This document shows, in pieces, positions 7,841 through 9,055 of a stretch of 9,462 nucleotides of DNA; within the stretch, counting starts at the first letter, position 1, and every line of letters starts with the position of its first letter. The position numbers were made by a program, and so were the translations under genes. The stretch lies in IMG/VR virus record IMGVR_UViG_2571042690_000013. The stretch is one strand, 5' to 3'. This DNA comes from a virus. Taxonomy: Duplodnaviria; Heunggongvirae; Uroviricota; Caudoviricetes. The notes below the pieces were generated by a model. That model was not told where the DNA came from, searched no databases, and was given only the letters and a program-made list of their open reading frames with translations.

Positions 7841-9055
7841 TCACCCCCTGAATCCCGGCGGTATTTCAGTGTCCGGTTCAGAAATGTGATTCACGCAACG
7901 CTGCGCAGGCGAACGCCCCAGGCGGATAACCAGTTCATCCCATTTTTCCCGGAGTTTTGCCGGACTCATGATGTTTTTTACCCAGAACGAATCCCGCTGG
8001 AGACGCCCAAACATTTCACAAATTTGTCTGTGAGTTCTGCCATCCAGCATCCGCATTGTGCGAACGTCATTGGCCCATGCTGTCCAGTTGGGTTCTTTCG
8101 GTCTAGTGATCTCAATTTCAGTGTCCGGTTCAGAAATGTGATTCACGCAACGCTGCGCAGGCGAACGCCCCAGGCGGATAACCAGTTCATCCCATTTTTC
8201 CCGGAGTTTTGCCGGACTCATGATGTTTTTTACCCAGAACGAATCCCGCTGGAGACGCCCAAACATTTCACAAATTTGTCTGTGAGTTCTGCCATCCAGC
8301 ATCCGCATTGTGCGAACGTCATTGGCCCATGCTGTCCAGTTGGGTTCTTTCGGTCTAGTGATCTCGCCATCATAGCTGGCCGCCTGCTCGTAAAGACTCA
8401 CGATTCGTCCCCAGATCCACTGTGCGCACACCAAATCTTCCTGACTTCCCCACTGGCGTTTTTTCGCACTGAACACAACCGCGTCAGGGTGTCGGGTTAA
8501 AAAATCCTGTTCAGCCGTCTGCGGGTCCGGTTGCGAAGCGTCCGGACAAGAAGATCTTTTATCTGACGGATCAGGTTTTAATACTGACGGATCGGGGTCA
8601 ATCATCGGCCCCCTAATCGGCAGTTTTTTATCAACAGTTGATCCATCAAAATTTGACGGGTCAACCGTTGAGGGGTCAATATTTGACGGGTCAACTGTTA
8701 ACGGGTCATTTTTTGCCGGGCTAATTTTTCTTTTCGGTTTATATGACTCACGCGCCGCCGCCGCAGCTGCTTCGAGTTTTTCCACATTAAGCCGATAGAT
8801 ATTGCTTACATTACGCCCACCGACCTTACGCTCTTCCTTCGTCAGCCAGCCCTCTTTCGCCAGTTCTGCAATAGCCGATTTCACTGTGGATTCACTTCTT
8901 GCACCGATCTGACGCCGGATAGTTTCAATGGCAGGCCATGACACGCCCTCGTCATTGCTGTAGTCTGCAAGACGGGCCATAACCGCCACCCTGGATAAGA
9001 TCATGCCGGTGAAGGCGCACCCTTCCCAGACAAGACCATGAAGCTTGCTGCTCAT
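7841..9055 (-). CDS. Replication initiator / replisome organiser (lambda O analogue) with N-terminal winged-helix domain; contains an internal 84-codon perfect tandem duplication
   Basis: Preferred start is ATG 9055 (MSSKLHGLVW...) with GGGGG 4 nt upstream; the track ORF starts at GTG 9070. The N-terminus has an HTH-like segment, the middle encodes DPS(N/T)(I/V)D peptide repeats from the DNA iterons, and the segment EITRPKEPNW...HISEPDTEI occurs twice consecutively. Confidence 0.75.
   Translation of the reverse strand: MSSKLHGLVWEGCAFTGMILSRVAVMARLADYSNDEGVSWPAIETIRRQIGARSESTVKSAIAELAKEGWLTKEERKVGGRNVSNIYRLNVEKLEAAAAAARESYKPKRKISPAKNDPLTVDPSNIDPSTVDPSNFDGSTVDKKLPIRGPMIDPDPSVLKPDPSDKRSSCPDASQPDPQTAEQDFLTRHPDAVVFSAKKRQWGSQEDLVCAQWIWGRIVSLYEQAASYDGEITRPKEPNWTAWANDVRTMRMLDGRTHRQICEMFGRLQRDSFWVKNIMSPAKLREKWDELVIRLGRSPAQRCVNHISEPDTEIEITRPKEPNWTAWANDVRTMRMLDGRTHRQICEMFGRLQRDSFWVKNIMSPAKLREKWDELVIRLGRSPAQRCVNHISEPDTEIPPGFRG
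7863..8366. repeat. Perfect 252-bp tandem direct duplication (2 copies) within the O-like gene
   Basis: 7863-8113 is identical to 8115-8365 by direct comparison. The period is 252 bp (84 codons), so the duplication is in-frame. Confidence 0.9.
8563..8709. repeat. Iteron cluster (putative phage origin) inside the O-like gene
   Basis: At least seven dyad-symmetric 12-mers of form YTGA-N4-TCAR: CTGACGGATCAG (8563), CTGACGGATCGG (8584), TTGATCCATCAA (8638), TTGACGGGTCAA (8653 and 8683), TTGAGGGGTCAA (8668), TTAACGGGTCAT (8698). An AT-rich stretch follows at 8710-8740. Confidence 0.6.

Follow-up and report, generated by a model that had tools for sequence, protein, structure and literature searches.

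The stretch of DNA analysed here (the window) is 9,462 nucleotides (nt) of Caudoviricetes sequence, IMG/VR record IMGVR_UViG_2571042690_000013. It was found to be the early-right region of a lambdoid prophage in which every gene lies on the minus strand, and it is 99.8% identical to the prophage adjoining ompW in Escherichia coli sequence type 131 (ST131) strain JJ1886 and in many other genomes. An O-like replication initiator gene in this region contains an array of short palindromic repeats. The array is functional at the DNA level and is conserved as DNA rather than only as peptide, and it is probably the initiator-binding part of the prophage replication origin, lying within the part of the gene that codes for a linker predicted to be disordered. 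In the databases the protein is named only 'helix-turn-helix domain-containing protein' and no origin is annotated. The gene, its domains and the repeats are as follows, with distances in base pairs (bp).

7841-9055, minus strand: O-like replication initiator gene (open reading frame and translation; PHROG 391; Pfam HTH_36; C-terminal domain, or C-domain, homologous to lambda O).
8744-9055, minus strand: predicted N-terminal winged-helix DNA-binding domain (N-domain), amino acids (aa) 1-104 (AlphaFold2 model).
8537-8728, minus strand: inter-domain linker, aa 110-173, predicted to be disordered (AlphaFold2 predicted local distance difference test, pLDDT, < 50; no secondary structure predicted) and holding the whole array.
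8638-8709, unstranded: main iteron array, five 12-bp dyads in a strict 15-bp (five-codon) register, with starts at 8638, 8653, 8668, 8683 and 8698.
8563-8601, unstranded: left repeat pair, CTGACGGATCAG at 8563 and CTGACGGATCGG at 8584, 21 bp apart, with a GATC in each of the pair and a degenerate overlapping copy at 8590-8601.
8563, plus strand: 12-mer 1, CTGACGGATCAG.
8584, plus strand: 12-mer 2, CTGACGGATCGG.
8638, plus strand: 12-mer 3, TTGATCCATCAA.
8653, plus strand: 12-mer 4, TTGACGGGTCAA.
8668, plus strand: 12-mer 5, TTGAGGGGTCAA.
8683, plus strand: 12-mer 6, TTGACGGGTCAA.
8698, plus strand: 12-mer 7, TTAACGGGTCAT.

A preliminary description of this DNA had counted at least seven palindromic YTGA-N4-TCAR 12-mers inside the O-like coding region. 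Seven such 12-mers were indeed located on the plus strand within 8563-8709, inside the minus-strand open reading frame. The same description had placed them 15-30 bp apart throughout, which proved incorrect, as the spacings from low to high coordinate are 21, 54, 15, 15, 15 and 15 bp. Five of the seven copies match TGA-N4-TCA exactly, and the remaining 9.3 kb of the window holds only two further matches. When the window was simulated 3000 times with a first-order Markov model, the number of TGA-N4-TCA sites in a 147-bp stretch never exceeded three, compared with the five observed. Tandem Repeats Finder reported a period of 15 (5.2 copies) and a period of 30. The unit is better described as a 5+2+5 dyad, TTGAC-NN-GTCAA, of which three copies are perfect and four carry one or two mismatches in the arms. 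An equally valid reading of the main array is TCAA-N3-TTGA (four exact copies), which makes it a lattice in which GTCAA and TTGAC half-sites alternate at distances of 7 and 8 bp.

In the initiator gene the array spans nt 347-493 (nt 347-418 plus 455-493), within the segment encoding aa 116-165. The minus-strand peptide of the array reads DPLTV-DPSNI-DPSTV-DPSNF-DGSTV-D, followed by DPDPSVLKPDPSD. The repeats had been described as encoding DPS(N/T)(I/V)D; three copies do encode DPS(N/T)(I/V/F)D, and the remaining copies do not. In a 21-kb stretch of the near-identical JJ1886 prophage, 12-mers with at most one mismatch were confined to the array, and neither the immunity region and promoters nor the rest of that prophage held additional copies beyond the chance level. 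An isolated iteron-like dyad, TGACACGTCA, is present at 7834-7843 in the window, where it overlaps the initiator stop codon and the ATG of the downstream DnaC-like gene. It is one of the only two TGA-N4-TCA matches outside the array, and it is compatible with chance. No promoter-like, terminator-like or Rfam match was found in the array region. DnaA-box-like sites were not enriched (4 found, 7.1 expected), with a single one-mismatch box at 8628. Sites of the integration host factor (IHF) type were sought by eye and rejected, the nearest candidates being mismatched in the TTR part.

Evidence that the repeats are maintained as DNA comes from homologues. A total of 71 loci encoding relatives of the N-domain were collected from different bacterial species, of which 64 homologues were usable, making 65 with the window. 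In these 65, TGA-N4-TCA was found 11.2 times per kb in the linker-coding segment, compared with 0.42 times per kb outside it in the same genes. Successive sites were spaced by exactly 15 bp in 102 of 147 cases and by 30 bp in a further 17, always in one codon phase. The serine codon in the motif [DE]-x-S was TCA in 84% of cases (n=364), compared with 14% for serine elsewhere in the same genes. The other linker serine, which supplies the T before GAY, was encoded by TCT in 52% of cases, compared with 9% elsewhere. At the same time the residue in the middle of the unit varied freely (P, A, T, G, V, R or H). Synonymous codons are thus frozen while the middle residue is free, and therefore selection acts on the DNA. 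The DNA around the left pair, GGGGATCCGTCAGTAAATTCAAAACAAGATCCATCAG, was nearly invariant in 61 homologues, third codon positions included; aspartate was encoded by GAT in all 61, proline by CCG in 90% and valine by GTA in 97%. For comparison, at conserved N-domain residues the commonest codon accounts for a mean of only 56%. Across the family, only the TGA and TCA arms are invariant within the repeat.

The repeat unit changes with the clade of the N-domain. It is TTGA-N4-TCAA in the clade of the window, CTGAC-NCN-TCAAAAT in the main clade and CTGAC...TCAGAAT in a third clade. The most distant relatives carry different dyads at the same position of the gene and nowhere else in their 5.3-kb loci, for example four copies of TCAGA-N-TCTGA at 60-bp spacing or four copies of CCACAAGT. 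The type of array was found to be independent of the type of C-domain (lambda-O-like or Phg_2220_C), of the downstream gene (lambda-P-like, DnaC-like or neither) and of the upstream regulator, which is YdaT-like here, of the Rha family in phiNP and YmfL in vB_EcoM-689R6. The number of units also varies, in whole 15-bp steps. Close E. coli relatives of the initiator are 320, 315, 310 and 305 aa long and carry 5, 4, 3 and 2 units, respectively, in parallel with the four iterons of lambda and the six of Shiga toxin (Stx) phages (PMC7466680). The N-terminal half of the initiator together with the array is present at >=99% identity in about 1360 of 5426 complete E. coli genomes, including strains of ST131, O157, O111 and O121, and related forms occur across Enterobacterales. 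A 671-bp segment of the locus is matched in roughly 2600 E. coli genomes.

The initiator matches PHROG 391, 'replication initiation O-like', with E = 4e-115, and Pfam HTH_36 matches at aa 25-71. In the AlphaFold2 model the N-domain consists of helices at 3-16, 20-31, 43-50 and 55-67, a beta-hairpin wing at 71-89 and a helix at 91-104; the solved folds closest to it are the dimeric ArsR, MarR and PadR winged-helix regulators. The C-domain is helical in the model from about aa 181, and by BLASTP it is 35% identical to lambda O over 148 aa (E = 5e-26). The N-domain had no match to Phage_rep_O (PF04492) at E < 0.01, whereas lambda O itself scores 123 bits, and a profile comparison with the lambda O N-domain (hhalign) gave no remote homology (probability 0.1%). 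A Pfam search found no Rep_3 match in the initiator. The last 21 residues of the protein, AQRCVNHISEPDTEIPPGFRG (7844-7906, minus strand), match the extreme C-terminus of E. coli DnaT at 15 of 21 positions (E about 2e-4), and the G-F-R-G/S ending of the initiators is kept across both C-domain types. This resemblance probably explains why phage relatives are annotated as 'primosomal protein I', and it hints at a recruitment of the helicase loader like that of DnaT.

The initiator of the window is 404 aa long, compared with 320 aa in the nearest genomes (JJ1886: WP_000095675.1). The difference is due to a perfect in-frame tandem duplication of 252 bp (84 aa) at 7863-8365, inside the C-terminal domain. 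The duplication is absent from JJ1886 and the other closest genomes, and the junction splits into two separate pieces in the 12 best E. coli matches listed. Either a recent event or an error of assembly could account for it, and the initiator may be inactive as a result.

A gene for a helicase loader follows directly.

7088-7834, minus strand: DnaC-like helicase loader gene, directly downstream of the initiator (Pfam IstB_IS21 and Bac_DnaA; PHROG 50 'DnaC-like helicase loader'; NCBIfam PRK12377, 506 bits).

The identical 320-aa initiator (WP_000095675.1) is also found in strain 300709 (L001 8694-9656), where neither a DnaC-like loader nor a DUF1627 gene comes after it and a DUF977 gene follows directly. 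In other genera the N-domain and array of this family are paired with a lambda-P-like gene. The DnaC-like loader is therefore an exchangeable module.

Three further features, defined by base composition and by GATC sites, overlap or adjoin the array.

8545-8600, unstranded: conserved block of low guanine-plus-cytosine (GC) content with GATC sites, overlapping the left pair; candidate unwinding element (stability, family GC, start of the lambda O alignment).
8553-8643, unstranded: cluster of four GATC (Dam) sites at 8553, 8569, 8590 and 8640, which places 4 of the 24 GATC of the window within 91 bp.
8707-8750, unstranded: tract that is T-rich on the plus strand and encodes the lysine-rich SYKPKRKISPAKN, on the 5' side of the array in the gene (27% GC over 8721-8750).

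The least stable 40-bp stretch within 7800-9100 is 8545-8584, at -48.3 kcal/mol against a mean of -57.6 (standard deviation 3.8). The 40-nt window with the lowest GC of the entire gene begins no more than a few nt from the aspartate codon of the left pair in 46 homologues out of 57. The block has a family mean GC of 32.5%, compared with 52.3% for the whole gene, and the two GATC sites of the left pair are conserved across the family. In gene orientation the block lies 3' of the main array, which is the position of the AT-rich region in lambda. The preliminary description had called the gene O-like and likened the arrangement to that of lambda, and both points are borne out by the searches above and by the position of the array (nt 347-493 here, nt 349-433 for the lambda iterons). 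Its view of the AT-rich sequence needs revision. An AT-rich tract beside the array on the 5' side of the gene does exist, at 27% GC over 30 bp. However, it is modest, with 38% GC over the 40 nt adjoining the array and equally extreme stretches elsewhere in the window, and it is confined to the clade of the window, the family mean being 50.7% GC in the 40 nt 5' of the array. Nor does the claimed difference in side from lambda hold, given that the conserved low-GC block is placed as in lambda in those 46 of 57 homologues.

How would such an array act? The explanation favoured for the locus is a lambda-type origin within the initiator gene that combines an N-domain and an iteron specificity unlike those of lambda with a DnaC-like loader. 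A probability of about 0.72 is assigned to the array being the initiator-binding part of the prophage origin. In the proposed mechanism the initiator, probably in dimeric form, would bind the dyad-symmetric 12-mers through its own winged-helix N-domain. The five adjacent sites in 15-bp register and the left pair spaced by 21 bp would assemble a multimeric initiator-DNA complex, which would destabilise or open the adjoining low-GC block at about 8545-8600. The lambda-O-like C-domain and the DnaT-like C-terminal tail would then bring in host DnaB via the adjoining DnaC-like loader. Initiator binding, unwinding, helicase recruitment and origin activity are here inferred only.

Several observations weigh against this explanation. 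The low-GC block is weaker than that of lambda over 40 nt, at 35% in the window and 32.5% in the family compared with 22.5%. The 15-bp spacing (1.4 helical turns) and the half-site separation of 7-8 bp are unlike the 20-24 bp of lambda. The inner positions of the dyad (the third base of the aspartate codon and the third base of the middle codon) covary weakly, with an odds ratio of 2 and p = 0.08. About 100 bp separate the array from the N-domain, and physical linkage instead of recognition could account for part of their covariation. The initiator copy of the window carries the 84-aa internal duplication, and therefore the prophage of the window may not replicate at all. Finally, the literature that could be searched yielded no binding or origin assay for this family and no annotated origin in any relative.

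A different mode of action at the same origin is possible, though it appears doubtful. Such an origin would combine the layout of lambda with control of the oriC type and helicase recruitment of the primosome type, unlike the discrete complex of lambda with one O dimer per iteron. A continuous filament of initiator might be nucleated on the uninterrupted lattice, whose half-sites alternate at 7 and 8 bp with a period of 15 bp. The two 13-mer-like repeats that start with GATC in the unwinding block might place firing under Dam/SeqA control, as in oriC or P1 oriR. The DnaT-like tail might also be able to bring in DnaB-DnaC directly, in the manner proposed for the restart primosome, which would explain the occurrence of the identical initiator without any phage loader in strain 300709.

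A second explanation is that the repeats are binding sites of another protein (phage Cro/CI, the YdaT/CII-like regulator, or host SeqA on the GATC sites) that regulates transcription through the replication genes, and are not an origin. The conservation of the DNA shows only that something reads it, dyads are typical of operators, and four GATC sites are clustered here. However, the type of array tracks the N-domain of the initiator, whereas relatives have different upstream regulators. In the JJ1886 prophage the promoters of the immunity region have no additional copies nearby, and the position of the array matches that of the lambda iterons. This explanation is considered unlikely. The array could also be a repeat of the peptide only, that is, a low-complexity (DPSxx)n linker grown by slippage, with the DNA periodicity and the dyads as functionless by-products. 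The unit is exactly five codons long and always in a single frame, the encoded segment is predicted to be disordered, and the copy number changes in whole units, all of which would fit. On the other hand, synonymous sites are fixed across genera (TCA 84% vs 14%, GAT 61/61, GTA 97%) while the middle residue of the unit varies freely, and distant clades retain an array at the same place with other DNA dyads and other peptides. The codon data thus largely refute this explanation, which is left with very little probability. Least probable of all is that the repeats serve mainly as a recombination joint for swapping N-domain and C-domain cassettes of lambdoid initiators, since such a joint needs neither dyad symmetry nor a 15-bp register nor N-domain-specific sequences, even though C-domain types (lambda-O-like, Phg_2220_C) and downstream loaders are shuffled directly past the array region and the left block is nearly identical in DNA across very different phages; such a role is compatible with origin function and may well be secondary to it.

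The other genes of the window were assigned as follows.

9078-9437, minus strand: YdaT/CII-like gene (domain and profile searches).
6296-7066, minus strand: DUF1627 gene (domain searches).
5855-6295, minus strand: DUF977 gene (domain searches).
5015-5701, minus strand: QueH gene, epoxyqueuosine reductase (Pfam QueH, E = 1e-65).

The QueH gene is unusual cargo beside replication genes in the early region of a prophage. A hok/sok-type toxin-antitoxin locus is present at 4613-4947, with an Rfam sok match at 4772-4947 (120 bits), and the JJ1886 annotation includes a hokD homologue; the locus also contains a perfect tandem repeat of 16 nt (4668-4704). Two phage-borne tRNAs are encoded on the minus strand at 1-59 and 160-235. 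The complete one is tRNA-Met (CAT) according to ARAGORN, and RefSeq annotates the JJ1886 copy as tRNA-Ile, presumably of the lysidine-modified CAT type. The other is truncated by the edge of the window, and its JJ1886 counterpart is tRNA-Arg.

A probable origin at this locus helps to tell which prophages are still able to replicate, to design compatible phage-derived replicons and to interpret how initiator modules are exchanged in mosaic fashion. The locus is also a clear natural example of overlapping codes, in which a putative protein-binding DNA lattice lies within the code for a disordered linker and has a measurable effect on synonymous codon choice. What is known of lambdoid replication is not altered by it.

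Among known systems, the origin of lambda within the O gene is the closest in layout. In both, an array of dyad-symmetric iterons lies inside the open reading frame of the initiator at nearly the same gene position, the peptide it encodes is the inter-domain linker, and the C-terminal domains are homologous. A block of lower GC content lies 3' of the array in gene orientation, and therefore the layout is N-domain, iterons, low-GC block and C-domain, as in lambda. The alignment with lambda O starts at aa 153 of the initiator and aa 145 of lambda O, which is the first codon past lambda iteron 4. The differences lie in the components. The N-domain is HTH_36 here and Phage_rep_O in lambda, with no profile similarity between them. 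The repeats are 12-mers of the TTGAC-NN-GTCAA type here and 18-mers of the TCCCTC...GAGGGA type in lambda, and they are spaced by 15 bp in the main array (21 bp only in the left pair) compared with 20, 24 and 23 bp. The low-GC block is weaker here and contains two extra repeat copies and GATC sites. A DnaC-like loader takes the place of lambda P, and the tail of the initiator resembles the C-terminus of DnaT. Just to the right of the AT-rich region of lambda (L158 655-680), the sequence TCGTCAGAGAATTCTGGCG resembles the conserved CCGTCAGAATCTGGCGG of the family (e.g. L038), a CCAGA-A-TCTGG dyad that encodes PSESGG. The linker regions of lambda O and of this initiator family may, judging from such similarity, share ancestry at the DNA level.

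Iteron plasmids (pPS10, R6K, P1, F, RK2) likewise have initiator-specific repeat arrays beside an AT-rich unwinding element, and both P1 oriR and oriC have clustered GATC sites in or near the unwinding element. In these plasmids, however, the repeats are direct, about 17-22 bp, usually outside the rep open reading frame and accompanied by DnaA boxes, and they are bound by Rep monomers with two winged-helix domains. Here, the repeats are 12-bp dyads inside the open reading frame, with no Rep_3 domain and no enrichment of DnaA boxes. The oriJ of the Rac prophage was considered as a direct precedent and rejected, because the Rac initiator, YdaU, is of another family (DUF1376) and the resemblance is limited to that between the DnaC-like YdaV and the loader.

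The Stx phages P27 and 933W, with six iterons, provide a parallel for the variation in copy number. In them, too, the number of iterons varies and each extra one lengthens the initiator, as each unit does by 5 aa here (PMC7466680). They differ in having a lambda-type O and lambda-type iterons, for which binding and plasmid replication have been demonstrated (PMC7466680). Initiators of the same N-domain family are found in the phages SfII, SfIV, phiP27, YeP1 and phiNP. The records of phiNP and vB_EcoM-689R6, in which SDPSKSDASKSDPSKF is an example of the array sequence, have no origin annotated. The initiators of the five phages have the same HTH_36 N-domain, 46-55% identical over aa 1-185, followed by an array with a 15-bp period. 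They differ in carrying the main-clade unit, CTGAC-NCN-TCAAAAT, and in their C-domains and loaders.

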